DNA of 24,233 bases from Myxococcales bacterium (GTDB lineage Bacteria; Myxococcota_A; Polyangia; Polyangiales; Polyangiaceae): contig JAHFDX010000002.1 in NCBI GenBank assembly GCA_023248785.1, forward strand, positions 6,540-30,772, read 5' to 3'. How positions within the stretch are numbered: position 1 is the stretch's first letter; each line of letters opens with the position of its first letter. The notes beneath the pieces are model-generated. The model made no database searches. It was not told where the DNA came from and saw only the letters and a list, made by a program, of their open reading frames with translations. Made by a program: the position numbers and the translations under genes. Shown piece by piece: positions 2,079-22,467 of the stretch.

Positions 2079-2711
2079 TTAGCGCGTACCAAATAGACGA
2101 TCGCCCGCATCGCCGAGGCCGGGCAAAATGTACCCGTGTTCGTTCAATTTATTGTCAACTGCGGCTGTCACAATCGGCACGTCCGGATGCACCTCGTGAA
2201 AATTTTTGATCCCCTCCGGGCAAGCAAGCAAGCACACAAACTTGAGCGAACCGGGCTTGCTCTCCTTCACGCGTTCGATTGCAGCAACCGCCGAGTTTCC
2301 CGTGGCGAGCATCGGATCGCACACAACCACATCACGGTCTGACAGGTCGCCCGGCACCTTGTAAAAATACTCGATGGCCATATGCGTCTTCGGATCGCGA
2401 TACATGCCCACGTGCCCCACGCGCGCAGATGGGACGATTTGGAGCATACCGTCCAAGATCCCCTGCCCCGCGCGCAAGATGGCAATGAGCACAAGCTTCT
2501 TTCCATCAAGCACCGGCGCCTTCATTGGCATAAGCGGCGTTTCGATGTCTTCGTCTCGCGTTTTTAGATCGCGAAGGGCCTCGTACGCGAGCAGCATCGA
2601 AATCTCGGTGAGAAGACGTCGGAAGCTCGCCGTACTCGTCTCCTTCCTGCGCATGAGGGTGAGCTTGTGCTTGATGAGTGGGTGATCAACGACGGTGACG
2701 TGTGGAGGCAC
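2079..2711 (-). CDS. upp: Uracil phosphoribosyltransferase (URC6 equivalent)
   Basis: [30 protein letters not shown]-binding loop, [19 protein letters not shown] start with AAAGGG SD. Confidence 0.97.
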
Positions 2712-2748
2712 TGTGCTTTCCCTTTCTTACTCTCTAAAAACCTGTTCG

Positions 2749-3957
2749 CTAGAAAACGGTGCCATCGCTTTGAATGTGAAGCGGTGGCGATCCGTCGGCG
2801 CGTTTTTCACGTGCAAGCTTGCGACCCGTAGCCCACGTTCCGCCTTCAAGTACTTTCGCGAGTGGAAAATCCTCTTCGCTACGGTCCAAGCGTGAGCAGA
2901 CAAGCGGCGCGATGGCATCCAAAAGAGCCACGGTGAGCGCACGCCACTCGACGATGAACTCCATGTCGGGGGTGTACACTTTGTCGAACGCAGAACGTTC
3001 CTTGGGAACAAGAACGCCACCGTCCAAGAAAAGACCTCCGTTGCGATACTCTGGCAAACCCGTCATGGCGCCAACGTCCACCACACTCACGCCGCCTTTT
3101 TCGATGGGTTCGATGAGTGAGTACGTAAGCCACTGCGAGAGTTTGTGAAATGGAACGAGCGGCTCGAAACCTTCTCGCTCGAGCGGTGCGTACGGCCACA
3201 CGTCGCCAAGGTTTTCGCCTTCGAGCGAGATACGGCCTGGCCAGATAGAGGAAAAGCCATCGAGCACGGCCTGTAGCAAGGTCTCCGCGGGCAACTTCCA
3301 ACCTGTGGCCATGCGCCTCATGGCATCGAAGAGAAAGCCCGGCCTTCCTTGATCGCCAAATAGATCAGTGCGTGATTTTAATGCTGCCCCTAGGCTTCGC
3401 AAAAGCAAAGCTCGCCCTTCGAGCCCCACAAGGGGGTTTTCATCGGACACTTGAAATCCGCGCGCAATATCTGCGGTTGTGATGCGGGAAAGACCGTCGG
3501 CGTCGACGCGAAGTGCTCTTCGATCGCTCGAGAATGCGCCCGACAAAAACATGCGCACGCTTGCCACGGCAAGCCCCTCCGACCGAGCATACGAGCGCGC
3601 ACCCTCGCGGTAACTCCATCCACCGCCCGCGCCAGCGTCAAGAAGGACGCTCACGGTCGCGAGATCGAGCTTAGCGCGCGCACGTTCGTCATCATCGTCG
3701 GGTGACAGAAGCGAGTCGAGCTCCGCTTCGCGATCAACACCTCCCACACTGAAGTGACGCCATCGTGCATGAAACGGGACTTCAAGTGTCGGATAGGATG
3801 CGTGCGTTACCTCCGCAACAAGGTCAGCAAGCTTCGGTAATGCAAATTCGTTCAACACGAAATGTCGTGTTTTATCGGCCCGCGCGAGTTGCAGAACACG
3901 CCCCGATTGTTCGCGAACGGCGCCGGCCGAGCGCAAATACCGAACCCGGTCACCCAT
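2749..3957 (-). CDS. URC4 / DUF1688-family uracil catabolism protein (402 aa)
   Basis: Motifs PFHARWRHF, VSVLLDAGAG..W.Y, RSEGLAVAS, FHKLSQWLTYSL, TGLPEYRNGGLF, EWRALTV, LEGGTW..GR. ATG at 3957 overlaps the upstream stop by 8 bp. The ORF-track extension to 4059 lies inside URC1 and was trimmed. Confidence 0.9.
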   Translation of the reverse strand: MGDRVRYLRSAGAVREQSGRVLQLARADKTRHFVLNEFALPKLADLVAEVTHASYPTLEVPFHARWRHFSVGGVDREAELDSLLSPDDDDERARAKLDLATVSVLLDAGAGGGWSYREGARSYARSEGLAVASVRMFLSGAFSSDRRALRVDADGLSRITTADIARGFQVSDENPLVGLEGRALLLRSLGAALKSRTDLFGDQGRPGFLFDAMRRMATGWKLPAETLLQAVLDGFSSIWPGRISLEGENLGDVWPYAPLEREGFEPLVPFHKLSQWLTYSLIEPIEKGGVSVVDVGAMTGLPEYRNGGLFLDGGVLVPKERSAFDKVYTPDMEFIVEWRALTVALLDAIAPLVCSRLDRSEEDFPLAKVLEGGTWATGRKLAREKRADGSPPLHIQSDGTVF

Positions 3958-5197
3958 CGAGCGGACGCCCCTTAACGGCGGCGAGCTCATCGGCCGACGC
4001 GATCTTGCCTTCCGTGTAGTAGCCAGCAGCCTTCTTTGCCTCCATCTCAACGCGCGCATCGGCTGGAATGAGTTCGTCAGGAATCGGAATGCGGTTGATG
4101 ATGCGGATGCCGCTCGACGTGATGGCGTTGAACTTCATGTCACTCATCGAAGCGAAGTGGTCGATCTTGGTGATGCCCATCCATTGAAGCGCATCGGGCA
4201 TCAGCTCCTGAAAGCGCATGTCTTGGACGCCTGCGACGCACTCGGTGCGGTGAAAGTAATTGTCGGCCCTGTCGCCACCCTCTTGCCTTTTTCGGGCGTT
4301 GTACACAAGAAACTTTGTGACTTCGCCAAGCGCGCGCCCCTCTTTGCGGTTGTACACAATGACGCCCCGTCCTCCGCGCTGGGCCGTCTCGATGCAAATC
4401 TCGACGCCATGTGCCAGGTAGGGACGGCATGTGCAAATGTCGGAACCAAAGACGTCGCTTCCGTTGCACTCGTCGTGAACACGACATGCAAGTTCCACCG
4501 TCTCGTCGCCAAGCTGCGTGGGGCAGCCAAAGAAGTACACCGTAAGACCGCCAATCGGCGGCAAAAAGACCTTGAGATCAGGCCGGGTGATGAGTTCGGG
4601 GAACATGCCCCCCGTTTGCTCGAATAGACCCCTGCGCAGGTCGGACTCTTCAAGGCCAAATCTCTCCGCAACGCCAGGCAAGTACCAGACCGGCTCGATG
4701 GCCGCTTTCGTAACAGCCACATCACCATTTTCGGTGAGCAAGTGCCCGTCTGCCTGGAGGCGCCCAGCCTTCATCGCGTCGCGAATCTCAGGCATGTTCA
4801 TGTGGGCTTTGGTGATGGCAATCGTCGGGCGAATGTCGACCCCGCTCGTCAAGAGCTCAGCGAACACTTCCTGAGCCACGGCGCCGTACGGATCGATGCT
4901 CACAATTTTCTTGGGGTCAGCCCAACTCGGATGCGGCCCGATGGGTTCAGCAGCCGAAGTGTTCGTGAGATCCGCGCGATGCGTTTCAACAAGCTGCCCG
5001 GCAGCCACCGCAAGCGCCCGATAGACGGCGTACGAACCCGAGTGCGTGCCAATAACGTTGCGATCGCGTGGGTTAGTGAGCGTGGCCACGACCGGACCGC
5101 GCGCTTTTGGGTCTTTAGCTCCCCATTGAATTTCAAGTCCCTGCGATTGCTCGGAGGGATGCGACGTGAGGCGAATGTGTTTCTTCTTGTCAACCAT
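3950..5197 (-). CDS. URC1-type GTP cyclohydrolase II-like protein with extended N-terminal domain (415 aa)
   Basis: N-terminal RNVIGTHSGSYAVYRALAVA. RibA-like Zn motif RVHDECNGSDVFGSDICTCRPYL (C-x10-C-x-C), RKEGRALG and DMRFQ. Sits next to URC4 and upp. Confidence 0.9.
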   Translation of the reverse strand: MVDKKKHIRLTSHPSEQSQGLEIQWGAKDPKARGPVVATLTNPRDRNVIGTHSGSYAVYRALAVAAGQLVETHRADLTNTSAAEPIGPHPSWADPKKIVSIDPYGAVAQEVFAELLTSGVDIRPTIAITKAHMNMPEIRDAMKAGRLQADGHLLTENGDVAVTKAAIEPVWYLPGVAERFGLEESDLRRGLFEQTGGMFPELITRPDLKVFLPPIGGLTVYFFGCPTQLGDETVELACRVHDECNGSDVFGSDICTCRPYLAHGVEICIETAQRGGRGVIVYNRKEGRALGEVTKFLVYNARKRQEGGDRADNYFHRTECVAGVQDMRFQELMPDALQWMGITKIDHFASMSDMKFNAITSSGIRIINRIPIPDELIPADARVEMEAKKAAGYYTEGKIASADELAAVKGRPLDG

Positions 5198-5200
5198 CGA

Positions 5201-6709
5201 TCAACTCATCCAGTTCGAATCAGATTGGGTGGACCACTTGCGGGTGATTTTCTTGAGCGAACTCCAAAATTCGATCCCGCCGTGGCCGGTAATGTCGCCG
5301 TGACCAAACTTCGACTCGTGCGTGCCTCCAAACGAAAAAGGTTCACGGGGCACAGGCACACCAACGTTGACACCGATCATCCCTGCGTGGACTCGATTGG
5401 CCACATACTCGGCAACACCTCCGTTCGTCGTGAAGATCGAGGCGGCATTGCCGTACGTGCTCTGACCTTCGAGCGCAATCGCGTCGCCCAGCGTGGGCAC
5501 GCGAACAATCGACAAAACGGGGCCAAAAATTTCGACCTGAGCGGCGGGTGAATCAGGCTTCACGTTGTCCAAAATCGTGGGGCCGATCCAGGTGCCTGAC
5601 TTGTACTCCGCGTCACGTGGCTGCTTACCTCGACCGTCGACCACAACCTTCGCGCCCCGCTTCTCCGCGCTCGCGATAGCATCGGTAATTCGGGACAACG
5701 ACGCTTGATCGATAATTGCGCCCATCTGCGCACCGACTTCAATCGCTGCTGCTTTTTCGCGCAACCGCGCAACGATGGGTTCAACGTCGCCGACAGCAAC
5801 CATGACACTTCCGGCCATGCACCTTTGACCCGCACAACCAGTAAACGAGTCGAGCACGGACTGCGCCGTAAGTTCGATCTCAGCGTCTGGAACGACGATG
5901 AGGTGATTCTTCGCACCACCGAGTGCGAGCGCTCGCTTGCCACTTCGCGAGGCACGCTCGTACACGAACTTCGCGACGGGGGATGAGCCTACAAACGCCA
6001 CCGCCTTCACATCAGGGTGATCCAAAATGGCTTCGACGGCATCCTTTCCACCGTGAACAATGGAGAAGATCCCGTTGGTGAAACCGGCTTCGAGCATCAA
6101 CTCTCCCAGACGACATGCCGTCAGCGGCACCTTCTCAGATGGCTTCCACACGAAACAATTTCCGAGCACGACAGCAATCGGAAACATCCACATCGGGACC
6201 ATGGCCGGAAAGTTGAATGGCGTGATCCCTGCCACAACGCCCAACGGCTCACGGCGATATTCGCACGTAACCCCCCGGCTGACTTCGAGGTTTCCACCGA
6301 GATCGAGGTTCTGAATGCTGAGCGCAAACTCAACCACTTCGACCCCCTTCAACACGCCGGCACGCGCTTCGGCCACGGTCTTGCCTGCTTCGCTCGCAGC
6401 GGTGTGGGCCAGTTCATCAAGACACTTGAGTAACAGCTCACGATACGCAAACATGCGCTGGGTGCGCTCTTTAATTGGGGTGTTACGCCATCCGTCGGAC
6501 GCACGTTTCGCGCCTTCGACGGCTTGCGCTACGTGCATTGCGTTGCTCATCGGCACGCGACCGATGAGTTGCCCGGTGTACGGACTCGTAACGTCGCGCT
6601 CGTTTTCGTGCACGCCTACTACATCATGGGGGCCATGGGGTGCTCGCCATTCGCCCCCCACGAGGTTGCGGCACCGATAGACGGACTTCGTTAACTCAAC
6701 CAGAGGCAC
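5201..6709 (-). CDS. mmsA: CoA-acylating (methyl)malonate-semialdehyde dehydrogenase (MmsA/IolA family)
   Basis: ITPFNFPAMVPMWMFP, KPSEKVP, FVGSSPVA, ALGGAKNH, catalytic GCAGQRCMA, EIFGPVL, GVNVGVPVPREPFSFGG. AAGGAG SD 5 nt before the GTG start. Confidence 0.93.
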   Translation of the reverse strand: MPLVELTKSVYRCRNLVGGEWRAPHGPHDVVGVHENERDVTSPYTGQLIGRVPMSNAMHVAQAVEGAKRASDGWRNTPIKERTQRMFAYRELLLKCLDELAHTAASEAGKTVAEARAGVLKGVEVVEFALSIQNLDLGGNLEVSRGVTCEYRREPLGVVAGITPFNFPAMVPMWMFPIAVVLGNCFVWKPSEKVPLTACRLGELMLEAGFTNGIFSIVHGGKDAVEAILDHPDVKAVAFVGSSPVAKFVYERASRSGKRALALGGAKNHLIVVPDAEIELTAQSVLDSFTGCAGQRCMAGSVMVAVGDVEPIVARLREKAAAIEVGAQMGAIIDQASLSRITDAIASAEKRGAKVVVDGRGKQPRDAEYKSGTWIGPTILDNVKPDSPAAQVEIFGPVLSIVRVPTLGDAIALEGQSTYGNAASIFTTNGGVAEYVANRVHAGMIGVNVGVPVPREPFSFGGTHESKFGHGDITGHGGIEFWSSLKKITRKWSTQSDSNWMS

Positions 6710-6743: not shown

Positions 6744-6772
6744 ATTATTTGCGCAAATCGATGATTTGTAAA
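6744..6772 (-). promoter_or_regulatory. sigma70-type promoter of the URC operon with overlapping 12-bp palindrome (candidate operator, 6747-6758)
   Basis: Minus strand reads TTTACA-N17-AATAAT (5/6 match at both -35 and -10), 35 bp upstream of the mmsA start. Perfect palindrome ATTTGCGCAAAT overlaps the -10 and spacer. Confidence 0.7.
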
Positions 6773-6837: not shown

Positions 6838-7878
6838 CTATCTTCGCGCATGACGCTCAAAGAACGTAAGCACTGCGGGCATGAATGCCGAGCCAAACGC
6901 GGGAACGTGGCCTGCGCCATCGAGACTCCAAAGTTCCGCGGAGCCTCCCGAAGTGCAACTGTCGTAGCGCAGCGGCGCTGTTTCGGCGCCAACGAGATCT
7001 GCGACGTAGTCGACCTTGCTGTCCCTCATCGGTGTCGTCCCACACCCATTGCGATAGGCAAATGTTGCAATGGTGCTTTCGGCACTTGGATACATGACGC
7101 TCTTCGCAGGCTGTTTCTGGGTAAGAGTGCCGCCCTTGTAGCTGATGGTCGCATCGGCGGTGCCGTGGATGGTGAGCACGCCGATCGGAGAGTCCGGTGT
7201 ACACCGCGTTTGATCGGACCACGTTGCGCCCGCGAGAGCAGCCACCGCCGCGAATCGCTTCGACTGTTCGCACGCAAGACGCAGCGAGAGAAATGCCCCG
7301 TTCGAGTGTCCAACGAGGTAAACGCGTCCGGGATCGACTGCGTAGCGAGCGACGATCTGGCGCACAAGATCGCGGATGTAGCCGACGTCGTCCGGAGCAC
7401 GCGATTCGAGATCGCAACACGCATCAGTTGCGTTCCAGAATTGTTGACCCGTGCTGTCTGCGGTTCCGTTCGGCAGGGCAACAAGATATCCGCGCGGCAG
7501 CGCCTCGCGCGACACGCCGAGGTAGAAGTCTTGAACACTCCCGGTCGCGCCATACCCATGAAGAAGAACGATGAGCGGGTGCTTCTTGGTTGCATCGTAG
7601 CCATCCGGCAACTTGACGTCTGCGGGACGCGAACCCCCGATGGGTCCCGTCATATCAATCGGTGGGAGAGACTCTTCGGCATCGGACGCGCTTCCCTCCA
7701 ATACGGCGGCTTCAGGCCCCGCGGCTGCATCGACAATGGACGCGCCCGGGGTTGCGTCAACGCGCGTGTCCGTTGGAAGCGAGCGCGCCGGATCTTCTCG
7801 CGAAGCGCAGGACCCGCAAGCCAGTGTTGAAGTTAGTGCCGCGACGAACGCGGTGCGCGATGCGAGGTATTCCCCCAT
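6838..7878 (-). CDS. Lipid-anchored alpha/beta-hydrolase, PHB-depolymerase/LpqC-like esterase (start 7878 or 7914)
   Basis: LLHGYG oxyanion region, WNATDACC, nucleophile GHSNG, IHGTAD (Asp), GAGHVP (His). N-terminal hydrophobic segment ending TLACGSC, followed by an acidic linker. Confidence 0.85.
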   Translation of the reverse strand: MGEYLASRTAFVAALTSTLACGSCASREDPARSLPTDTRVDATPGASIVDAAAGPEAAVLEGSASDAEESLPPIDMTGPIGGSRPADVKLPDGYDATKKHPLIVLLHGYGATGSVQDFYLGVSREALPRGYLVALPNGTADSTGQQFWNATDACCDLESRAPDDVGYIRDLVRQIVARYAVDPGRVYLVGHSNGAFLSLRLACEQSKRFAAVAALAGATWSDQTRCTPDSPIGVLTIHGTADATISYKGGTLTQKQPAKSVMYPSAESTIATFAYRNGCGTTPMRDSKVDYVADLVGAETAPLRYDSCTSGGSAELWSLDGAGHVPAFGSAFMPAVLTFFERHARR

Positions 7879-7978
7879 GCATGCCCATTTGGCGGGCGTC
7901 GCACCAATAGTCAATGGTTATCAAGCGAAGAACCCCAGTCCCACAGGTTGGTCGTTCCGAAATACGCCTTGGCACGCG

Positions 7979-9152: not shown

Positions 9153-9719
9153 ATGCCGAGCGCCGTAGCTGCAATTCGTACCAAGGAACGTATTTTTTCT
9201 CTCTCGACCCTCAAAGACCGTTCCTTCGCCGATCTCGAACAAATGTACCGAAGTGCGAAGATTCCAGAATCGCTTTCGCCGCTAAAAGGACACCCTCGCG
9301 GGCGCATGCTCGCCACGCGTTACTTCGCAAGCGGCCCCGTCGCAAACGCACTTCGAAACTTCGCGTTTGCTTCCTCGTTCCCTTGGGAGGGAAAGAGTTT
9401 CACGAGCTCCGCGAAAAGTGGCACCGGCGTCAACCGCGTTCGCTTGGGCGGGCGGCACGCGCTCTTTCCGTTCATCACGAAAATTGCACCCTCGCTCGTC
9501 GATGACAAACCGTGCGTGGTTCTCGACTACGACCTCGCCGACAACCCATCGCTCATTCGAATGATCCACGACGAAGTGCGCGAGGTGGACGACGGCCTCT
9601 ACCTCGGCCCCGCCATGCGAAAGATCAAGAATGGATCGCCCGAGCTTGTGCTCTGGTTTGCGGTCGACTTTCACGAACCAATGCGACCGATCGGCGAAGC
9701 GCGAAGGCTCGTGGAATGA
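9153..9719 (+). CDS. Conserved-looking hypothetical protein (188 aa)
   Basis: GGAGG SD before ATG 9153. Motifs FPWEGKSF, G.NRV, DY....NP.LIRMIHDEVREV..GLYLG.A. ATGA-coupled to the SDR. Confidence 0.8.
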   Translation: MPSAVAAIRTKERIFSLSTLKDRSFADLEQMYRSAKIPESLSPLKGHPRGRMLATRYFASGPVANALRNFAFASSFPWEGKSFTSSAKSGTGVNRVRLGGRHALFPFITKIAPSLVDDKPCVVLDYDLADNPSLIRMIHDEVREVDDGLYLGPAMRKIKNGSPELVLWFAVDFHEPMRPIGEARRLVE

Positions 9720-10495
9720 AGGTACGGCCGCAGCACGCCTTGATTACGGGTGGTGGCGGTGCGATTGGCAACGCCATTGCAAAGTGCTTGATTCGTCGCG
9801 GCCTCGCCCTGCGCATCACACTCGTAGACATTGATGAAAAAGCGGCGCAGAGCAACGCCTCGTCACTGGGTCACGATACGCATGCCGTCGCTTGGGATTT
9901 GTCCCGCACGGACGATCTCCCTCGGCTCTATGAAGAGCTCACGCGCGATCGAGGTACGGTGGACTGGCTCTTCAATTGCGCCGGGATCATGGAGGTACAA
10001 ACGTTTGCGTCGCTCCCATGGGACACATGCACCCGCACGCTGCGCATCAACTTGGAGAGTCCACTGCGGCTCATGTCGCTTGCAGTGCCCGCCATGATCG
10101 AACGCGGTTCCGGTGTCGTTGTGAACGTGACAAGCATGGCCGGCGTCACGCCCATCAAGGGATGCGCGCTCTACGGCGCCTCGAAAGCTGGGCTTTCCAT
10201 GGCATCGGAAATCGCACGCATGGAGCTCGCGGCGAAGGGTGTTCGCGTGGTGACGGTTTACCCAGGCCCCGTGAGTTCGGCGCTCGAACGCCGCGCGCGC
10301 GCACAACTGGCACACACGCCTGCGACTCGTTGGATTCCAGTGGGCAAACCCGACGAGCTTGCCGAGCGCGTGATTGATGCGTGCGTGCACGGCAAGCCGA
10401 GGGTCGCCTACCCTGCGATTTATGACGTTGCGTCTCGCTTGCCGCAGCTTACGCGCCTTCTGACCGAGAGGCTGTCGCCGGAGCCGAGAGTGTAA
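9716..10495 (+). CDS. Short-chain dehydrogenase/reductase (259 aa)
   Basis: TGGGGAIG Rossmann motif, NCAG, NVTSMAG (catalytic Ser), YGASK (YxxxK), VYPGPV. ATG 9716 overlaps the upstream TGA. Confidence 0.92.
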   Translation: MKVRPQHALITGGGGAIGNAIAKCLIRRGLALRITLVDIDEKAAQSNASSLGHDTHAVAWDLSRTDDLPRLYEELTRDRGTVDWLFNCAGIMEVQTFASLPWDTCTRTLRINLESPLRLMSLAVPAMIERGSGVVVNVTSMAGVTPIKGCALYGASKAGLSMASEIARMELAAKGVRVVTVYPGPVSSALERRARAQLAHTPATRWIPVGKPDELAERVIDACVHGKPRVAYPAIYDVASRLPQLTRLLTERLSPEPRV

Positions 10496-10519: not shown

Positions 10520-12250
10520 TCACCCTCCGTACCGCAACGAAAACCGGGCTTCAGGCCCGTACGTAAACACCTCCCCTTCCTGCCCCGCGAGCAATCGCTC
10601 GTTCTGTGCCGTCCAAAAATTGGGATCGCACAGGTCGCCATGAAACTCGAGAAATGTGTCGCGTGAGGTGCCGGGAGGAAAAAGAAATGTTGGGAACTGC
10701 GCCGGGAAAATGTCGTTCGTATCGACCACCAAGCGCGACTCGCTCGACATCTCGTCGTCGTCATCACGCGACACCGGCAAGTGATGAAAGCGGCAGTCGG
10801 TGAGGTAGCAGACCTCGTCGTAATCGTAAAAAAGAACCCGACCGTAACGGGTAACACCGAAATTCTTGATGAGGAGATCACCCGGAAAGATGTTGGCTGC
10901 CGCGAGATCTTTGATCGCGTCGCCGTACTCGCGAATGCTGTCCCTCCTGCGTGCGTCGTCCGCGCTGCGCAGGTGCATATCGAGGGGGACGAGACGTCGC
11001 TCCATATAAAGGTGTTTGATCACAATCCGCTCTGCATCAATCTCGATGCTTCCGGGGATCAGTCGCACGATCTCCGCCTTTAGCGCCTCGTCAAATCGTG
11101 ACCAGGGAAATGCCACGTGCGTAAACTCGAGCGTATCGGTCATGCGCCCGACGCGATCGTGACCCTTGACGAGCTGGTAGCGCCCCTCGACCGAACGGCG
11201 ATCGGCATCTTTTGGCGGCTCGAACCAGTCACGAATGACCTTGAATACATAAGGGAATGACGGAAGCGTAAACACCAGCATCACCATCCCCTTGATTCCC
11301 GGCGCAAGAACAAACCTGTCGCTCGAGTGCTTGAGATGTTGCTGCAAGTCTCGGAAGAAAATGGTCTTGCCCTGTTTCTGCAGGCCAAGGAGCGTATAGA
11401 TCTCCGCCTTGGGCATGGTGGAAACGACCGTTTGGAGAAACTCTACGTAGGCAGCGGGCACCTCCATGTCGACCATGAAGTACACATGGCTCAGGCTGAA
11501 GAGGCGCCCGATGTTCCGTTCATCAAGCAGAATCGTGTCAACGTAGACGCTGCCCGTCGCGTCGCGCAAAAGTGGCACGACAAACGGAAACGTTCGCGCT
11601 CCATCAAGGACACGACCCACGGCATACGCCGCGCGATTGCGAAAGAACAGCGATCGCAACACTTGAATCTGGAAATTCGGGTGACGCGCCCACCCGCGAG
11701 GAAACGCCTCTCGGATCGCCTGCTTCACATAGCCTATGTCGCGGTCGAGATCTTGGAACGGGAGCGCGAGTTCGAAACGCAGCAAGATCTCGCGAAACGA
11801 GCGATCGATGGGATCGGGCGAGTCCGAGTAGTAGCATCGGTACGTTGGCTCTTCGCCGTCGAGATGCTCCGTCGAAATGGCGGGACGGGAGAAGATGTAG
11901 TCGTTTCGATGGTATCTGCGATCGAGGACGCGCGAAGCCACGGAGTTAAAGAACGTTTCGGCACACTCGGGCTGTTTATGTTCGTACAGCAGTCCGATGT
12001 ACGTAGTCTTGATGTGGGCCCAAAGACCCTCCTCGGTTTTCAGATGGGGAAAGCGTTCCGTCAAAACAGACACGGCTTCGCGGACGCGCTGATCGTACAT
12101 GTCGATCCGAGTTCGACTCGCCTGTCGAACCGCAGACCAATCCGCTTTTTCGAAGTGCCCCTTGGCTTGTTCGCTGACCTCGCGAAACAGTCGGTAGTGC
12201 TTGTCGAATCCGTGCAAGATGGTCTGCGCGACTTCGAGGCTCGAGCTCAT
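10520..12250 (-). CDS. aceK: Isocitrate dehydrogenase kinase/phosphatase (576 aa)
   Basis: ILHGFDKHYRLF, KQPECAETFFNSV, GLQKQGKTIFFR, APGIKGMVMLVFTLPSFPYVFKVIRD, HDRVGRMTDT, NIFPGDLLIKNFGVTRYGRVLFYDYDE. The ORF-track extension to 12397 was trimmed. Confidence 0.95.
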   Translation of the reverse strand: MSSSLEVAQTILHGFDKHYRLFREVSEQAKGHFEKADWSAVRQASRTRIDMYDQRVREAVSVLTERFPHLKTEEGLWAHIKTTYIGLLYEHKQPECAETFFNSVASRVLDRRYHRNDYIFSRPAISTEHLDGEEPTYRCYYSDSPDPIDRSFREILLRFELALPFQDLDRDIGYVKQAIREAFPRGWARHPNFQIQVLRSLFFRNRAAYAVGRVLDGARTFPFVVPLLRDATGSVYVDTILLDERNIGRLFSLSHVYFMVDMEVPAAYVEFLQTVVSTMPKAEIYTLLGLQKQGKTIFFRDLQQHLKHSSDRFVLAPGIKGMVMLVFTLPSFPYVFKVIRDWFEPPKDADRRSVEGRYQLVKGHDRVGRMTDTLEFTHVAFPWSRFDEALKAEIVRLIPGSIEIDAERIVIKHLYMERRLVPLDMHLRSADDARRRDSIREYGDAIKDLAAANIFPGDLLIKNFGVTRYGRVLFYDYDEVCYLTDCRFHHLPVSRDDDDEMSSESRLVVDTNDIFPAQFPTFLFPPGTSRDTFLEFHGDLCDPNFWTAQNERLLAGQEGEVFTYGPEARFSLRYGG

Positions 12251-12479
12251 TCTGCTACGCCGTACGTTACCCGATGGGGTGGCGCGATATTCCTGCTTTG
12301 CGCATCGCCGATGGTCATACCTTAGGCCACAGTATGGTTTGTCCACCCCTACATTCTCCGAACAGAGCGCATTGAACTCTTGAAGTCGACGTCTCATACA
12401 AGGGACGCGTATAGACTCAAGCCGTTGGCGATAACGTCGGGTGGAGTTTCGAGTTGTTTATCGAGCGAGGGAGAAATCG

Positions 12480-15753: not shown

Positions 15754-16003
15754 GGGAGAAGTGACCGTCCTTCAGTGATGTCGCGATTTGGAGAGAGTGT
15801 ATTCAACCGTGCGCAGCAGGGTGCTGCGGCTTCGCGCAAACGAGGACCGTCGCGCGGGGTGCGAGCTAGCCTCGAGTAAAGTGCGGAGTCAAGCGTGGAT
15901 GGTCGCCGTTCGATTCATGTCCAACGCGGCGAATGTAGAAAGCTCTCTGTCTACGTACGGCCATACTATGCATATTGATTTCATGGCGGGAGATCGAAGC
16001 CTC

Positions 16004-17686
16004 ATGCACATTCCAAGGGCGACCATGCGCCGAGCAATCATTTGCGGATCCGCGCCTGCACTCGTCTCGAGCATTCTTGTCCCATTGGCACACGCGGTCC
16101 CCGACTGTCGAAAGCCGGGCTCTGAAGATATCCCGGCGTGTCGTCCCCGCCCACAGAAGCCCGGTCCACCTGTGGTTCTTGGAAACTACGATCTTGTTTC
16201 GGATTCGGCAGACGATAACGGCATCCCACGCAATCCACGATGGGCGAAACAAGAACGATATCGCCAGCGCACGGGGAAGACGGACTACACAAACCCCGAA
16301 GCACTGCCGAGCATTCGCCCGGACTGTCTCGACTTCTCAAAGAAGGGCGGATGGAACCTCTACGACGGATACAATCCCTTCATCGGCAACTCAACTTGCC
16401 GCGCGGCTCCAACCACCATCGATAACTGCTGGTTCGGCAAGTGCCTCTGGGGTCACTTCGAAACGGACTACCACGTATCCGGACACGCGAACTTTCAACC
16501 CGCCACTTTCGAAGGGCCCCTTCAATGGGAGTGCGCTGACAGTATTCCGAAGGGTGGCGATGTTGATTGGACGATGAACATCTACCCCGCGAACGGCGCG
16601 GGCGCCACCGGCTCCGATGGGCGAGTCCACCTCGAATGGGATCCGACCGAGTCGGGCGAAGACTTCACTACACCGTGGTGGTCGAGTTTTCGCAAAGGCA
16701 TTCACGACGGTTGGTCGTGGAAATCGATCACGGGGTACGACGAACCTACGTGCACCGCACAGCGTAAGACCGTTGGTGCGGCTTTCATGGACGGAAGGCG
16801 GGGCATCGTGACGGGACTGCTCGGACTTGACCTTGGCCACTCAAGCGCATCCGTCGAGCTTCATCCTGTATGGGCCATCGCCATCCATGCGAACGGCGTG
16901 AGGGCGAGCTCGCTGCAACCAGATCCAGCGTGGGACACGCTCCCCAGTGTTCCGCTCGATGACACGTGGGCTGTGATGGCGCGCAATTGGGGCAACGAAG
17001 GGTATTGCTCGTCGGGAGATTCGCATTTCCTCGAGACGAAAACCATTTCGATTCGCATCCCGTGGCCGACGAATGCGACGCAGGTCGAAGTGCTTCCTTC
17101 GACCACAATTTGGGGCTCAGTCTCGAACGGGAACAAGAACGATTCGAGCGATCTCGGGTGGGGCTATTGGATTGACCCCAAAAAGGAACATCGAGGTCTT
17201 GTGTTTGTAGCGGATCTCCCGCGTCCGGCCGCCCATGCGAATGTCTATGGTGAACTGCATCTGAAGTGGACGCTCGCGACCCAACGTCGTGTTCCACCGA
17301 TTGCGCTCGCGGCACTCGCTCCCGTCGAACATGTCGGACGCGATGGACACGATGGACACGATGGAGGTGAGACCGCACCCCAACTCATCAAGCGCATGAC
17401 AAAAGAACAACGGCGGGCGTTCGAGTCTGCAACTTCAGCACTACCCGCAGAGGCCGGCCCGTCGCGTTCGCCCGCGCTGCGGCTTCGCAATGGCACCGTT
17501 GCGAAGGCAGCAGCCACACCACCCAAGGCTCCACCTTTGGTCTCACCAATCCTCGATGCAGAGAGGCGCGGGCGGGATCACCAAAGGCTGACTGCGTTGT
17601 GTGCGGTGTACAAGGGTCACTTCCCGGAGCCTTGGTTCAAACAGGCATGCGATGGATTGCCGCGCATGCTGGGAGCGTCGCGTTAA
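16004..17686 (+). CDS. Large secreted hypothetical protein (~560 aa; start 16004 or 16025)
   Basis: Signal MRRAIICGSAPALVSSILVPLAHA. Trp/Cys/Asp-rich body with GLLGLDLGH..VELHPVWAIAIH and WAVMARNWGNEGYCS. Pro/Ala-rich tail. The ORF-track extension to 15788 looks non-coding. Confidence 0.8.
   Translation: MHIPRATMRRAIICGSAPALVSSILVPLAHAVPDCRKPGSEDIPACRPRPQKPGPPVVLGNYDLVSDSADDNGIPRNPRWAKQERYRQRTGKTDYTNPEALPSIRPDCLDFSKKGGWNLYDGYNPFIGNSTCRAAPTTIDNCWFGKCLWGHFETDYHVSGHANFQPATFEGPLQWECADSIPKGGDVDWTMNIYPANGAGATGSDGRVHLEWDPTESGEDFTTPWWSSFRKGIHDGWSWKSITGYDEPTCTAQRKTVGAAFMDGRRGIVTGLLGLDLGHSSASVELHPVWAIAIHANGVRASSLQPDPAWDTLPSVPLDDTWAVMARNWGNEGYCSSGDSHFLETKTISIRIPWPTNATQVEVLPSTTIWGSVSNGNKNDSSDLGWGYWIDPKKEHRGLVFVADLPRPAAHANVYGELHLKWTLATQRRVPPIALAALAPVEHVGRDGHDGHDGGETAPQLIKRMTKEQRRAFESATSALPAEAGPSRSPALRLRNGTVAKAAATPPKAPPLVSPILDAERRGRDHQRLTALCAVYKGHFPEPWFKQACDGLPRMLGASR
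17336..17365 (+). repeat. 9-bp tandem repeat (GGACRCGAT x3 + GGA) encoding GRD-GHD-GHD-G
   Basis: GGACGCGAT GGACACGAT GGACACGAT GGA, in frame within the secreted protein. Confidence 0.85.
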
Positions 17687-17842: not shown

Positions 17843-18397
17843 CTAGACGGCATCGAACTCATCGGCGGAGAACCATCCGTGCGCTCGCAGAAAACGTCGC
17901 GCAGCTTGCGCGAGTTCCAGCGCTGATGTGTACGCTGCGTACTTCTCGGGAAAGGTAGCGAGCACCTTATTCTTCGCACCGAAGAGCACGACTCGAGAAA
18001 CCGCGCGCGTTCCAACACTCGAGGCCGTGGGAGCAATACCCGCTAGCAGCTCAACGCTCACCATTTCTGTATCCTTGGTATCGAGCTCGACCCGCCGAAT
18101 CGACGCGAAGTTCACCTCCTTGTGAAAACCATCTCCGGCAAGCGTAAGCGTACCGCCCTCGAGCGAGAGCGTGAGCAATAGTCGTGTACGTTCTAGCCGG
18201 AACCAGGCCCACACAAGCAAGGGAACGAAAATGATTCCCAGCAGAGGTTGCATGAGCAGCCCTCCACCGAAAAGAATGGCAGCCGCGACGAAGAAGCCCA
18301 CGCGTCTACGTCGGTGACTACTCGCTTCGGGCTCGAGGCGTATGGTCGAAACAACCCCAATCGCTGAGGGTAGCTGTCGATAAGGAAGCATCTGCAT
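17843..18397 (-). CDS. Hypothetical membrane protein with two TM helices (~184 aa)
   Basis: N-terminal MQMLPYR, basic patch HRRRR, hydrophobic hairpin VGFFVAAAILFGGGLLMQPLLGIIFVPLLVWAWF, then a soluble beta-rich domain. Start uncertain (18397, 18391 or 18481). Confidence 0.7.
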   Translation of the reverse strand: MQMLPYRQLPSAIGVVSTIRLEPEASSHRRRRVGFFVAAAILFGGGLLMQPLLGIIFVPLLVWAWFRLERTRLLLTLSLEGGTLTLAGDGFHKEVNFASIRRVELDTKDTEMVSVELLAGIAPTASSVGTRAVSRVVLFGAKNKVLATFPEKYAAYTSALELAQAARRFLRAHGWFSADEFDAV

Positions 18398-18474
18398 GAT
18401 TGCCGTATAATTGTGCGCAGCGGTGCCTGCAATCGTGCGCCAGTCATCTGGCCACCTCAGCGGTAGGCAGACAA

Positions 18475-18492
18475 TTGTCATCGTTCTGTCAT
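18475..18492 (+). promoter_or_regulatory. Pho-box-like direct repeat (OmpR/PhoB-family site)
   Basis: TTGTCAT-CGTT-CTGTCAT: 7+4+7 layout with 11-bp period, matching the E. coli CTGTCAT half-site, 83 bp upstream of the acyltransferase start. Confidence 0.45.
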
Positions 18493-19309: not shown

Positions 19310-19645
19310 ATGAACCGAACGAAACACACATATTCCCGCGTGAGCCACACCATCGTCGCCATGGGCGTCGCGTTTGGTGCCGCGTGCAGCGGTCGCACGG
19401 ACGATCCGAACGGCGCAACCCTCAGCGATGGTTCCGCAACAGACGGCGGAACTGACGCAGACGCTTGGCCACATGAGAGCGCCACCGCGAAAGCGCCGGA
19501 CGCAAGCGATGCCGGCAGTTCCGATGCGGACGCTTGGCCACACGAGGGCGCCGACGTGAAAGCGCCGGATGCAAGCGATGCCAGTGAGGTCGACGCTCCG
19601 TGGGTTCACGAGGGGCCCAGCGTGCTGGATTCAGGACAGCCGTGA
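19310..19645 (+). CDS. Small acidic lipoprotein with three W-x-H-E repeats; candidate RiPP-like precursor (111 aa)
   Basis: AGGAG SD. Signal ending AFGAAC-SG. Repeats DADAWPHES, DADAWPHEG, DAPWVHEGP. TGATG-coupled to the next gene. Confidence 0.8.
   Translation: MNRTKHTYSRVSHTIVAMGVAFGAACSGRTDDPNGATLSDGSATDGGTDADAWPHESATAKAPDASDAGSSDADAWPHEGADVKAPDASDASEVDAPWVHEGPSVLDSGQP
19454..19582 (+). repeat. Two ~60-bp degenerate direct repeats with 69-bp (23-codon) period, in frame
   Basis: GACGCTTGGCCACAYGAG...GAAAGCGCCGGAYGCAAGCGATGCC starts at 19460 and at 19529. Confidence 0.9.
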
Positions 19646-20490
19646 TGCCCGCCGGATTGCCGAGCAAAAAACTCCGCCCACGCCTTCCGCAAAAATCGGC
19701 CACGCTCGTTGAGTTTCGCCTTCGACGTTACAAGCCCGTCGCCATTGAGTGGACTGACTTGCCCACAGACACCATTGCTCCATCGGAGCGAAGGGTCATC
19801 GCGCGTGTTTGGGCATCACGCGCTCGAAGTGAACACTCCGCCGTTGGAGCATTCTCGCAGCTCGCGTACGAAGCCGCGCGCCTCAACGCGCCCTCACCGA
19901 TTCTCGAAATGCTCACGCGCGCTGCACACGATGAAGTGCGACATGCAACGCTCTGCGACGATTACGCAGCCACGCTTGTTGGACCGGAATATCAGCCTCT
20001 TCCACGCATGGGAGTGCCTCACGGGCCAACCTTTGGACTCGAACCCTCGCGCGAACGCACGTTGCTTCGCATCGTTGCGTTGTCGTGTTTCAACGAAACA
20101 ATCACGAGTGCATACTTCACGCAGATGTTGAAGGGACCTCTTCACGCACCGGTTCGCACGCTCGTGAGTTCTCTGCTCGAAGATGAGATGGATCACGCTC
20201 GCGTCGGTTGGGCGTACGCGAAGGTAGCTATCGACGCGGGATGGGGTGAATCGGCCCTTACCCTCGCGATGGACAAGCTCGTCGCAAGCTGCATGCAGCC
20301 GCTTGTAGTGGCGCGACGTTTTGGACGCTCGCACGAAGCAATGCGGGCCTTCGGCTACTTTGCACCGGGGGAAGATTTTGCCATTGCCGTCGACACGTTG
20401 CGCTCGGTCGTGTTGCCCGGATTCAAAACGCTGGGCATCGATTCAAAAATCGGCCAAGACACACTTGAGGCCCTAACCCGCGCTAGCTAA
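19645..20490 (+). CDS. Ferritin-like (four-helix diiron) domain protein (281 aa)
   Basis: Full E...ExxH...E...ExxH ligand set: RSEHSA, HDEVRH, FNETI, EDEMDH. ATG 19645 overlaps the TGA of the upstream lipoprotein. No signal peptide. Confidence 0.85.
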   Translation: MPAGLPSKKLRPRLPQKSATLVEFRLRRYKPVAIEWTDLPTDTIAPSERRVIARVWASRARSEHSAVGAFSQLAYEAARLNAPSPILEMLTRAAHDEVRHATLCDDYAATLVGPEYQPLPRMGVPHGPTFGLEPSRERTLLRIVALSCFNETITSAYFTQMLKGPLHAPVRTLVSSLLEDEMDHARVGWAYAKVAIDAGWGESALTLAMDKLVASCMQPLVVARRFGRSHEAMRAFGYFAPGEDFAIAVDTLRSVVLPGFKTLGIDSKIGQDTLEALTRAS

Positions 20491-21679
20491 TTTCCTTCAG
20501 CACTTCGACAACCGTTCGCACGCCTTCACGTAACTCACCGTCGCTCACGATAAGCGGAGGCGTGAATCGAAGAACTCGTTCACCCGCCGCAGTGAGGAGC
20601 ACCCCGCGATCGAGAATTTTTCCTAGCCAATCTCGAGCAAGCAGGCCTTCGCGAAGGATGAGCCCTTGCAGCAAGCCAACTCCGCGTGAGCCTTCGCACG
20701 CGTTTGGAAGAGCCTTTGCTGCATCCTTCAAGAGCGAAGTGAGGAGCTGCCCGCGAGCCCTTACGGCATCGCAAAGCTTCTCGTTTTCGATCGTGCGAAG
20801 CACCGCAAGCGCTGCAGAACATGCCAGCGGATTTCCTCCAAACGTCGATCCGTGCGTGCCCGGTGGCAACGCATCGGCTACGCGCGCATTCGTCACCATT
20901 GCGCCAATCGGAACGCCTCCTGCGAGTCCCTTCGCGAGCGCGATCGCATCGGGTTCAATCTGCCCTTGAAATCCGAACATCTTCCCGAGGCGGCCCATAC
21001 CTGTCTGCACTTCGTCGACGAGCAAGAGAGCTCCATGCTCGTCGGCAAGTTTTCGCAGCCCGACAAGAAATCCCTCCGGAGCAGGCAGAACTCCGCCTTC
21101 ACCTTGAACGGGTTCCACCACGATGCCCGCCACATCGGCACCCATCGCAGCGCGCACTTGATCCAGATCTCCGTACGCGACGTGCGTAGTGGGGCCACAC
21201 TGCCCGAACCCCTCTCTGTACTTCGGGGTTCCTGTCAGCGTGAGTGCACCCATCGTGCGACCGTGAAACGCGTTGTGAAAAGCGATCATGCGCTGACGCA
21301 TCTTGTCACCGCGCGCATAGTGGTAGCGGCGCGCAAGCTTGAGCATCGCTTCGTTCGCTTCGGCGCCTGAGTTGCAAAAGAACGCGCGCGCGAGGCCCGT
21401 GTGTCGAACCAGTGCCTCGGCGAGCTCAATATTGGGTGCGTTGTAGAAGTAATTGGACACGTGAATGACGCGTGCTGCTTGCTCCGCAATTGCTTTCGTC
21501 AATTCAGGGTGCGCGTGCCCCAACGTGCTCACTGCTACGCCAGCACATAGGTCGAGGTATCGCTTTCCTCCCTCATCGTAGAGGGAGCAGCCCTCTCCGC
21601 GCACGAAGACGACTGGAGCGGGTCGATAGTTGCCGTAGAGGTACTGCTTTGCCAGTTCAAGATGCGGCGCGCTTTTCAT
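20483..21679 (-). CDS. argD: Acetylornithine aminotransferase (class III PLP, 398 aa)
   Basis: YLDLCAGVAVSTLGHAHP, FFCNSGAEANE, FHGRTMG, EPVQGEGGV, DEVQTGMGR, LAKGLAGG (PLP Lys), HGSTFGGNPL. ATG 21679 with GAGG SD and ATGA overlap. Confidence 0.9.
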   Translation of the reverse strand: MKSAPHLELAKQYLYGNYRPAPVVFVRGEGCSLYDEGGKRYLDLCAGVAVSTLGHAHPELTKAIAEQAARVIHVSNYFYNAPNIELAEALVRHTGLARAFFCNSGAEANEAMLKLARRYHYARGDKMRQRMIAFHNAFHGRTMGALTLTGTPKYREGFGQCGPTTHVAYGDLDQVRAAMGADVAGIVVEPVQGEGGVLPAPEGFLVGLRKLADEHGALLLVDEVQTGMGRLGKMFGFQGQIEPDAIALAKGLAGGVPIGAMVTNARVADALPPGTHGSTFGGNPLACSAALAVLRTIENEKLCDAVRARGQLLTSLLKDAAKALPNACEGSRGVGLLQGLILREGLLARDWLGKILDRGVLLTAAGERVLRFTPPLIVSDGELREGVRTVVEVLKEIS

Positions 21680-22467
21680 CCAGACCTCTTTTGTAGGATG
21701 GCATTGGCGACTTGGACAAATCCAGCGCCACTTGGAAAAGAAGCGATGTACCGCGGAGGGACGGACAACGCGGACATATGATCTGCCACGTTCGAGACGC
21801 CAAAAGTCGTATGAAATGCGGCAAAACACGCGGCGTCGTTGCCACTGTCGCCAATGAAGGCAAGCGACCTACGCAGGGCGGTTGGGTCGGCGTCCCAGAT
21901 CGATCGCGCAAACTGAAGCGCGCCGGTTGCCTTGTCGTGGGCGTCAAACGTTGCGTGCAGATGGACGCTTGAAACACTGACCCGTGCGCCGTGTGCAAGC
22001 ACCACGTCGCGCATCATGGCCACGCGGTCCGGTGGGACACGTTGATGTTCACCAATGTCCCACGTGAGGTCTGATGCACGAAGGTGCGCGTCACCGGCCA
22101 CTTTTGCATCAGGGACGCGGTTTCGCATTTCGTCCGCGAGCCTTGCAAGTCGAATCCGGCGACTACGGCGTTCGTCGGGAACACACGAATCGACGACTTG
22201 AACCCGTGACCTTTCGCGGACAACGAATAGGTTGCCGTTCTCGGCGATACCTCCTGAAACAGGAAAAATGCGCACAAGCACTTCGACCCATCCAACCGGA
22301 CGCCCCGTCACGATGGCAAGCTTCAGCCCCGCATCGGAAAGATCCCAGAGAGCCTGGTAGGTCTGCGAACGAAGAAGACCGTCGGTAAGAAACGTGTCGT
22401 CGAGATCGAACAGGAGGCCCACGAGCCTCGCGGCTTCTTCCGTTTTGAGATCCCTAAGCGGTTGCAA
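21676..22467 (-). CDS. HAD-superfamily hydrolase, subfamily IIB-like (start TTG 22467 or GTG 22482)
   Basis: Motif I DLDDT, motif II VTGRP, IAENG, K in DKATG, motif IV IGDSGND. GGAGG SD 6 nt before TTG 22467. Confidence 0.88.
   Translation of the reverse strand: MQPLRDLKTEEAARLVGLLFDLDDTFLTDGLLRSQTYQALWDLSDAGLKLAIVTGRPVGWVEVLVRIFPVSGGIAENGNLFVVRERSRVQVVDSCVPDERRSRRIRLARLADEMRNRVPDAKVAGDAHLRASDLTWDIGEHQRVPPDRVAMMRDVVLAHGARVSVSSVHLHATFDAHDKATGALQFARSIWDADPTALRRSLAFIGDSGNDAACFAAFHTTFGVSNVADHMSALSVPPRYIASFPSGAGFVQVANAILQKRSG

Follow-up and report, generated by a model that had tools for sequence, protein, structure and literature searches.

Which fate awaits the three-carbon fragment that is released when a bacterium degrades uracil through the URC pathway, and why should the gene of an aldehyde dehydrogenase stand at the head of a URC gene cluster? 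The pathway, whose genes URC1 and URC4 were defined genetically in the yeast Lachancea kluyveri, is reported to convert uracil into urea and 3-hydroxypropionate. The question is raised by a 24,233-nucleotide stretch of DNA (hereafter the window; GC content 58.7%) from an uncultured groundwater bacterium catalogued as Myxococcales bacterium (GenBank assembly GCA_023248785.1, contig JAHFDX010000002.1, positions 6,540 to 30,772), in which four minus-strand open reading frames (ORFs), mmsA, URC1, URC4 and upp, lie co-oriented from position 6709 to position 2079. The source is a metagenome-assembled genome (MAG) of 827 contigs from a groundwater metagenome, 86% complete, and the window is part of its contig C759; among public genomes its nearest relative is a second 'Myxococcales bacterium' MAG of the same genus (L021, identical to G003). 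The locus is contained in one DNA run of a groundwater metagenome, with no RNA data set listed for it. As judged by sequence and gene order, the four genes probably represent a URC-type operon for pyrimidine catabolism to which the gene of a dedicated aldehyde dehydrogenase is joined. The elements concerned are the following.

5201..6709, minus strand: mmsA, 502 amino acids (aa), coenzyme A (CoA)-acylating (methyl)malonate-semialdehyde dehydrogenase of the URC-linked clade that we call class B (PF00171, TIGR01722)
3950..5197, minus strand: URC1/urcA, 415 aa, predicted uridine triphosphate (UTP) cyclohydrolase, GTP cyclohydrolase II-like with an N-terminal GTP_CH_N domain (PF12471 and PF00925)
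2749..3957, minus strand: URC4/urg3 family (DUF1688), 402 aa, predicted N-glycosidase on a ribosylurea nucleotide (PF07958)
2079..2711, minus strand: upp (equivalent of URC6), 210 aa, uracil phosphoribosyltransferase (UPRTase; TIGR01091, NF001097)
6744..6772, minus strand: promoter-like TTTACA-17-AATAAT from a consensus scan, 35 nt upstream of the mmsA start

The junctions, read from the sequence, together with profile searches, bear out the gene identities, the common orientation and the tight spacing claimed in a previous sequence-only reading of this DNA. The mmsA stop codon (TGA, 5203-5201) is separated by 3 bp from the ATG of URC1 at 5197; the URC1 stop (TGA, 3952-3950) and the URC4 ATG at 3957 overlap by 8 bp, ATGGGTGA; and the URC4 stop at 2749 is followed after 37 bp by the GTG of upp at 2711. 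The longest ORF of URC4 begins at 4059, although the start at 3957 is favoured by the homologues, which are 396-417 aa long and span 99-100% of the 402-aa version. Such an arrangement is far beyond chance, since dozens of genomes have these genes in the same order. An AAGGAG ribosome-binding site lies just ahead of the mmsA GTG at 6709, and the -35 box of the promoter-like site, CCCTTTACAAAT, is kept in the same-genus relative L021. The scan yielded 3 sites against 2.4 expected, which makes the site in the mmsA leader weak evidence by itself; the proposal of one promoter for the four genes has this consensus match as its footing. No inverted repeat was found in the mmsA leader, the terminator scan stayed at background (8 found vs 8.6 expected) and no Rfam family reached its gathering score in the whole window.

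The first step of the route can be assigned with some precision. URC1 matches PF12471 (282.7 bits), PF00925 (49.5 bits) and NF005536 (763 bits), and it aligns end to end (residues 7-415, 608.8 bits) with the protein of PDB entries 7EJ3 and 7EEV, with about 70% identity as counted on the alignment and with the Cys-rich zinc motif region conserved. These entries correspond to the bacterial UTP cyclohydrolase UrcA, which comes from another organism and is described as performing a two-step hydrolysis of UTP during uracil breakdown (Zhang, Wei, Lin et al., ACS Catal 2021;11:8895). Because URC1 is so close to a structurally solved enzyme the first URC step is now defined, and the earlier description of it as poorly understood is outdated. 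On this similarity the window URC1 is a predicted UrcA-type UTP cyclohydrolase, by which the ring would be opened on UTP and not on uridine monophosphate (UMP) or uridine. By chemical reasoning, the products of UrcA are presumably a ribosylurea nucleotide and malonate semialdehyde.

URC4 covers the full length of PF07958 (DUF1688; E 1.9e-144, profile positions 1-420) and has more than 8000 homologues under the NCBI name 'URC4/urg3 family protein'. Its profile returned noise only from the PDB sequences (E ~0.5). The AlphaFold model (predicted local distance difference test score 93.3, from a 38-sequence alignment) has as its only significant solved neighbours the DUF2419/Qng1 queuosine-5'-phosphate N-glycosylases (Foldseek E 1.3e-9, probability 1.00, TM scores 0.62/0.75), which share the fold at 16-20% sequence identity and are about 80 residues shorter. 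A fold of the Qng1 type suggests that URC4 cleaves the N-glycosidic bond of a nucleotide, and its substrate would be a ribosylurea nucleotide where that of Qng1 is queuosine-5'-phosphate. In yeast, URC4 is reported to degrade ribosylurea to urea. The candidate activity that we predict from the model for DUF1688 is the release of urea from the ribosylurea nucleotide.

With these assignments a complete route can be proposed. Upp (TIGR01091, 265.7 vs 208.35 bits; NF001097, 281 vs 114), whose gene in the operon is the only copy found in the assembly, would join uracil and phosphoribosyl pyrophosphate to give UMP, which housekeeping kinases may then raise to UTP. URC1 would open the ring of UTP by a two-step hydrolysis, as does its close homologue of 7EJ3/7EEV, presumably yielding the ribosylurea nucleotide and malonate semialdehyde; URC4, to judge by its fold and by yeast genetics, would free urea from the former, and a urease encoded elsewhere would turn the urea into ammonia. 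The class-B MmsA would oxidise and decarboxylate malonate semialdehyde with nicotinamide adenine dinucleotide (NAD+) and CoA to give acetyl-CoA, in such a way that ring carbon would be kept as acetyl-CoA and not lost as 3-hydroxypropionate as in yeast. The genome holds the corresponding parts: URC1, URC4 and a UPRTase gene are contiguous, a urease alpha subunit for the urea is encoded outside the operon (937.8 bits), and mmsA, the only methylmalonate-semialdehyde dehydrogenase (MMSDH) found in this genome, is at hand for the C3 aldehyde. Urea carboxylase, 3-hydroxyisobutyrate dehydrogenase (mmsB), uridine kinase and dihydropyrimidinase gave nothing above cut-off in the 86%-complete genome.

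The MmsA step is proposed on three grounds, which we take in turn: the family of the enzyme, the conservation of its catalytic residues and that of its linkage to URC genes. MmsA passes the curated cut-off of TIGR01722, the MMSDH family (494 bits vs 448.5), and its matches among solved structures include human ALDH6A1 and bacterial MMSDHs (E 1e-114 to 1e-102). The alignment shows that Cys297, Asn166 and Arg296, next to Cys297, are retained and that Leu263, in a GGAKNH motif, replaces the catalytic Glu, whereas other aldehyde dehydrogenases (ALDHs) in the same genomes carry E-(L/T)-GGK. According to a 2025 review the hallmarks of ALDH6 are a catalytic Cys, an oxyanion-hole Asn and the replacement of the catalytic Glu by Asn, Leu or Phe; in the window MmsA the Cys and the Asn are present and the Glu is replaced by Leu, and the linked clade as a whole retains these features along with the Arg beside the Cys. 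The carboxylate-binding arginines of the family are Arg283 and Arg107 (1T90 numbering). The equivalent of the former is Arg296, and the equivalent of the latter, a column assigned by aligning the protein with human ALDH6A1 and with canonical MmsA, is Lys121. Lys occupies this site in 120/120 close homologues against Arg in 11/11 canonical enzymes; the charge is thus kept and the residue changed. Ten more columns are specific to the same clade.

Sequence comparison sets the linked proteins apart from canonical MmsA in other respects. The MmsA proteins encoded beside URC genes are 52-73% identical to that of the window, those of Bdellovibrionota included, while canonical MmsA of close relatives reaches 39-45% (tblastn). 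The TIGR01722 scores divide likewise, 423-502 bits for the linked clade and 540-820 bits for the canonical enzymes, many class-B members from Bdellovibrionota falling just under the cut-off (423-448 bits). Among 40 relatives of the same order, one MMSDH group scores 540-765 bits, lies on unrelated contigs and occurs in genomes without URC4 in ten of eleven cases, and a second group scores 477-502 bits and adjoins or lies near URC genes in eight of ten. The two exceptions in the second group are G037, which has a class-B gene and no URC genes, and G025, whose gene is frameshifted and nearer to the canonical type (39-46% identical to the window MmsA). In an IQ-TREE phylogeny the canonical clade (95/87) is set apart from the linked sequences, and the linked sequences of Bdellovibrionota form one clade (96/99); the rooting of this tree, on two very long outgroups, is unreliable. 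By these measures the linked mmsA represents a clade of its own among the CoA-acylating (methyl)malonate-semialdehyde dehydrogenases, and the members of this clade probably catalyse the NAD- and CoA-dependent oxidation and decarboxylation of malonate semialdehyde to acetyl-CoA.

How widely, then, is such a dehydrogenase joined to URC genes? A pattern scan over one genome per species located URC4 at 599 loci; 80 of these, each with 10 kb on either side, made up the survey set. The order URC1-URC4-upp was found in about 70 of the 80, in Alpha-, Beta- and Gammaproteobacteria, Legionella, Cyanobacteria, Mycolicibacterium, Myxococcota and Bdellovibrionota; it is a widespread known cluster, and any suggestion that the bacterial trio is new does not hold. 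In 16 of the 80, URC1 is immediately preceded by a co-oriented mmsA; all sixteen come from Myxococcota or Bdellovibrionota but for one further bacterium, and none of the sampled loci of Proteobacteria, Cyanobacteria, Legionella or Mycolicibacterium has mmsA beside URC1. A role of the cluster in pyrimidine use is indicated by its neighbours, since a nucleoside-type ATP-binding cassette (ABC) transporter lies near the URC core in 13/80 loci, a cytosine deaminase (806 bits) in 8/80 and, in five loci of Bdellovibrionota, a uridine kinase gene straight after upp. No reductase is consistently linked to the URC genes in the 80 loci. Short-chain dehydrogenases/reductases (SDRs) occur within 7 kb of the core in 6/80; we considered them as malonate-semialdehyde reductases and rejected them, their family being generic.

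Tallies were then made for the two phyla. URC4 is rare in the phylum of the window (5/151 evenly drawn genomes). Fifteen further genomes of that phylum with URC4 were examined, and in 12 of them class-B mmsA immediately precedes URC1, two of the twelve being cut by a contig end. In the remaining three, mmsA is 5 kb away, or a canonical enzyme is present elsewhere only, or an atypical URC4-upp pair occurs without URC1. Bdellovibrionota carry URC4 more often (48/121 evenly drawn genomes), and here 31 of the 48 have class-B mmsA directly upstream, three have it unlinked, 13 have a canonical MMSDH elsewhere (673-819 bits; G192, G202, G210, G226, G233, G240, G247, G254, G261, G267, G279, G285 and G297) and one has neither. 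Class B is thus found in 34/48 URC4-positive and in 2/73 URC4-negative genomes, a clear pattern, though one in which related genomes are not independent, and no sampled genome of Bdellovibrionota has both MMSDH types at E 1e-100. This complementary distribution suggests functional replacement, in which the two types would be interchangeable with respect to URC. The survey of mmsA versus reductase neighbours that the sequence-only reading had called for therefore finds class-B MmsA conserved upstream of URC1 in both phyla and co-occurring with URC4, with no reductase in a comparable position.

A few loci depart from the common plan. At L121 (G030:C183, 3577-8785) a gene for a 1338-aa Ser/Thr kinase-AAA ATPase, on the opposite strand, and a small outer-membrane beta-barrel gene stand between mmsA and URC1, which looks like an insertion into the operon. 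L133 (G021:C578, 7773-9651) has a divergent URC4 (37% identity, 295 bits with PF07958) and, after it, upp, while URC1 and mmsA are missing from the vicinity. L119 (G037:C17, 8628-10109) encodes a class-B MmsA, 60% identical and with the signature Lys, with no URC gene within 8 kb; URC4 was not found in this genome, 85% complete, and the neighbours (a trypsin-like protease, AAA_28 and TetR) are uninformative. In Cystobacter fuscus strain NCWS (L042, 7228-8701) mmsA is split into three adjacent pieces in different frames, and at L125 (G019, 4529-5111) upp consists of two overlapping pieces; these breaks are either frameshift mutations or assembly errors. In addition, 13 loci of Cyanobacteria (among them L039, L048, L051, L069, L073, L076, L084, L089-L091, L094 and L096) share a conserved tetratricopeptide repeat (TPR) protein of 156 aa, encoded divergently upstream of URC1, which might act as a regulator or partner particular to that lineage.

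Oxidation of malonate semialdehyde to acetyl-CoA is the most economical reading of these data, because class-B MmsA is conserved upstream of URC1 in two phyla and co-occurs with URC4. The earlier proposal of this fate for the C3 fragment thus comes out strengthened by the linkage survey, its ground being sequence and gene linkage. Several observations weigh against it. In this genome, as in five carriers with better assemblies (Vitiosangium, Archangium, Corallococcus, Fluviispira and Bdellovibrio), no MMSDH was found other than the linked gene, which may be used by other pathways too, or chiefly by them. Nor is linkage a rule without exception, as the 13 Bdellovibrionota with an unlinked canonical enzyme and the class-B gene of G037 demonstrate, and a FastTree of concatenated URC1 and URC4 (midpoint root) does not make the operons of Myxococcota and Bdellovibrionota sisters, so that a single origin of the mmsA-URC1 junction gains no support from this tree and may yet hold. 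One of the two carboxylate-binding arginines of characterised malonate-semialdehyde dehydrogenases is Lys in class B, which leaves the substrate preference not assured. Furthermore, every step of the route is predicted, for this organism and for all bacteria with the four-gene form, and at 86% completeness the absences from the genome are provisional.

The main rival holds that mmsA is a housekeeping (methyl)malonate-semialdehyde dehydrogenase of valine, beta-alanine, inositol or propionate-related catabolism, whose main flux does not come from pyrimidines. A sole MMSDH gene, here and in the five other genomes with the linked form, is what such a role would leave, the 13 URC4-positive Bdellovibrionota manage with an unlinked canonical enzyme, and NCBI annotates the class-B proteins as ordinary MMSDH. 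However, adjacency and orientation are conserved over two phyla in a distinct clade, that clade is nearly confined to URC4 genomes in Bdellovibrionota, and among the sampled relatives eight of the ten MMSDH genes in the class-B score range keep company with URC genes, while the canonical MmsA sits in genomes without URC4 in ten of eleven. Nor does this genome have a 3-hydroxyisobutyrate dehydrogenase above cut-off. Because the linkage is specific to the clade and spans two phyla, and mmsB was not found, the rival is weakened and we consider it unlikely.

A second rival accepts a CoA-dependent enzyme and assigns it another substrate, either methylmalonate semialdehyde, derived from 5-methyl-UTP or thymine-type substrates, or some other aldehyde made by URC1 and URC4. 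The fixed Arg-to-Lys change at the carboxylate-binding site (120/120 vs 11/11), the ten further clade-specific columns and the many members below the TIGR01722 cut-off are what a shifted specificity might produce. Yet Lys is still positively charged, and the Arg beside the Cys, the Cys itself, the Asn and the absence of the Glu are all kept; moreover, the work in yeast leads to malonate semialdehyde and 3-hydroxypropionate as the C3 product. We regard this variant, too, as improbable. It is more doubtful still, to the point of being very improbable, that the cluster is a salvage or sanitising module in which URC1 and URC4 clear damaged or surplus uridine nucleotides, for although upp is here the sole copy found, the activity of URC4 is predicted only and we know of no bacterial growth phenotype, a CoA-acylating dehydrogenase has no role in salvage, the neighbours elsewhere are a cytosine deaminase and uptake systems, yeast grows on uracil as nitrogen source through its URC genes and a urease is encoded in this genome.

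We therefore return to the four genes as a catabolic operon with its own dehydrogenase. A wider hypothesis, which we offer tentatively and would not yet favour over its denial, is that class-B MmsA is a dedicated malonate-semialdehyde dehydrogenase, marked by the Arg-to-Lys change, whose evolution in Myxococcota and Bdellovibrionota accompanied that of the URC operon. With URC4 as the glycosidase beside it, the enzyme would allow the pyrimidine rings of prey RNA to be burned for carbon and energy, as acetyl-CoA and NADH, as well as for nitrogen, whereas other bacteria would use URC for nitrogen only. The link to predation fits the distribution, in that predators abound in both phyla and a uridine kinase gene joins the cluster in Bdellovibrionota; it is confounded by shared ancestry.

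The surroundings of the operon in the window can be summarised briefly. A full-length AceK (isocitrate dehydrogenase kinase/phosphatase) is encoded at 10520-12397 on the minus strand, 4 kb from the operon, with both Pfam domains at E <=1e-103. AceK controls the glyoxylate shunt for acetyl-CoA assimilation, and as a neighbour of an operon that would yield acetyl-CoA it is suggestive. Directly upstream of mmsA and on the same strand (6838-7914, minus; gap 128 bp) lies a gene for an alpha/beta-hydrolase that resembles the catalytic domains of extracellular depolymerases of short-chain polyhydroxyalkanoates (132 bits, cut-off 150); it is not conserved beside the operon in other loci. Downstream of upp, between 362 and 2209, long ORFs overlap on both strands (362-1360 plus, 1038-2036 minus, 1415-2209 plus and 1561-2073 plus), and none of them has a Pfam or NCBIfam match. 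The same holds for the ORFs at 15788-17686 (plus), 17843-18481 (minus) and 19600-20490 (plus), of 632, 212 and 296 aa. Two candidates for further steps were set aside: the SDR at 9512-10495 as a malonate-semialdehyde reductase, being a generic SDR, and the class-III aminotransferase at 20483-21829 as a beta-alanine transaminase, being ArgD.

What is described here is a variant of a known pathway and not a new one, since the route, the bacterial URC1-URC4-upp cluster and its first enzyme are already published. In the literature searched, whose scope did not extend to the full texts of the key papers, no paper was found that treats mmsA and URC genes together. The present work adds a quantified survey, the finding that the linked MmsA proteins make up a clade of their own in which the Arg-to-Lys change is fixed, and their complementary distribution with canonical MmsA. 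The gain is incremental. Among the four pathways of pyrimidine degradation URC has been characterised least, and a conserved operon partner points to malonate semialdehyde as the fragment released and to acetyl-CoA as its fate in two phyla; the natural Lys-for-Arg signature may also be useful for probing substrate recognition in malonate-semialdehyde dehydrogenases.

The comparison with known systems is closest for the yeast URC pathway (L. kluyveri URC1, URC4, URC6/UPRTase, URC3,5 urea amidolyase and URC8; urg1 and urg3 in Schizosaccharomyces pombe). The window operon has the core trio in common with it, including the N-terminal extension of URC1, the DUF1688 protein URC4 and the UPRTase, and in both the breakdown would take place at the nucleotide level to urea and a C3 unit. 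The yeast enzyme URC8 reduces malonate semialdehyde to 3-hydroxypropionate. In the window, by contrast, the genes form one compact operon, urea is probably split by urease and not by urea amidolyase, and a CoA-acylating dehydrogenase heads the operon with no URC8-type reductase linked, so that the predicted C3 end product is acetyl-CoA. The Rut and the reductive (Pyd) routes also pass through malonate semialdehyde, which is reduced to 3-hydroxypropionate in Rut and oxidised by an MmsA-type enzyme in some bacteria with the reductive route; the window operon differs from both in that the ring would be opened by a cyclohydrolase on UTP, and its genome has no dihydropyrimidinase above cut-off. Finally, canonical MmsA/IolA/ALDH6 (B. 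subtilis 1T90, human ALDH6A1 and the MMSDH structures of Pseudomonas and Sinorhizobium) is of the same family and the same length as the window MmsA and has the same catalytic Cys, Asn, Arg beside the Cys and replacement of Glu by Leu, the mark of CoA-dependent deacylation. Class B stands apart from it by an identity of just 39-45% in related genomes, by scores near the TIGR01722 cut-off, by Lys in place of Arg107 and by its genomic partner, which is URC1 and not mmsB, iol or bau genes.

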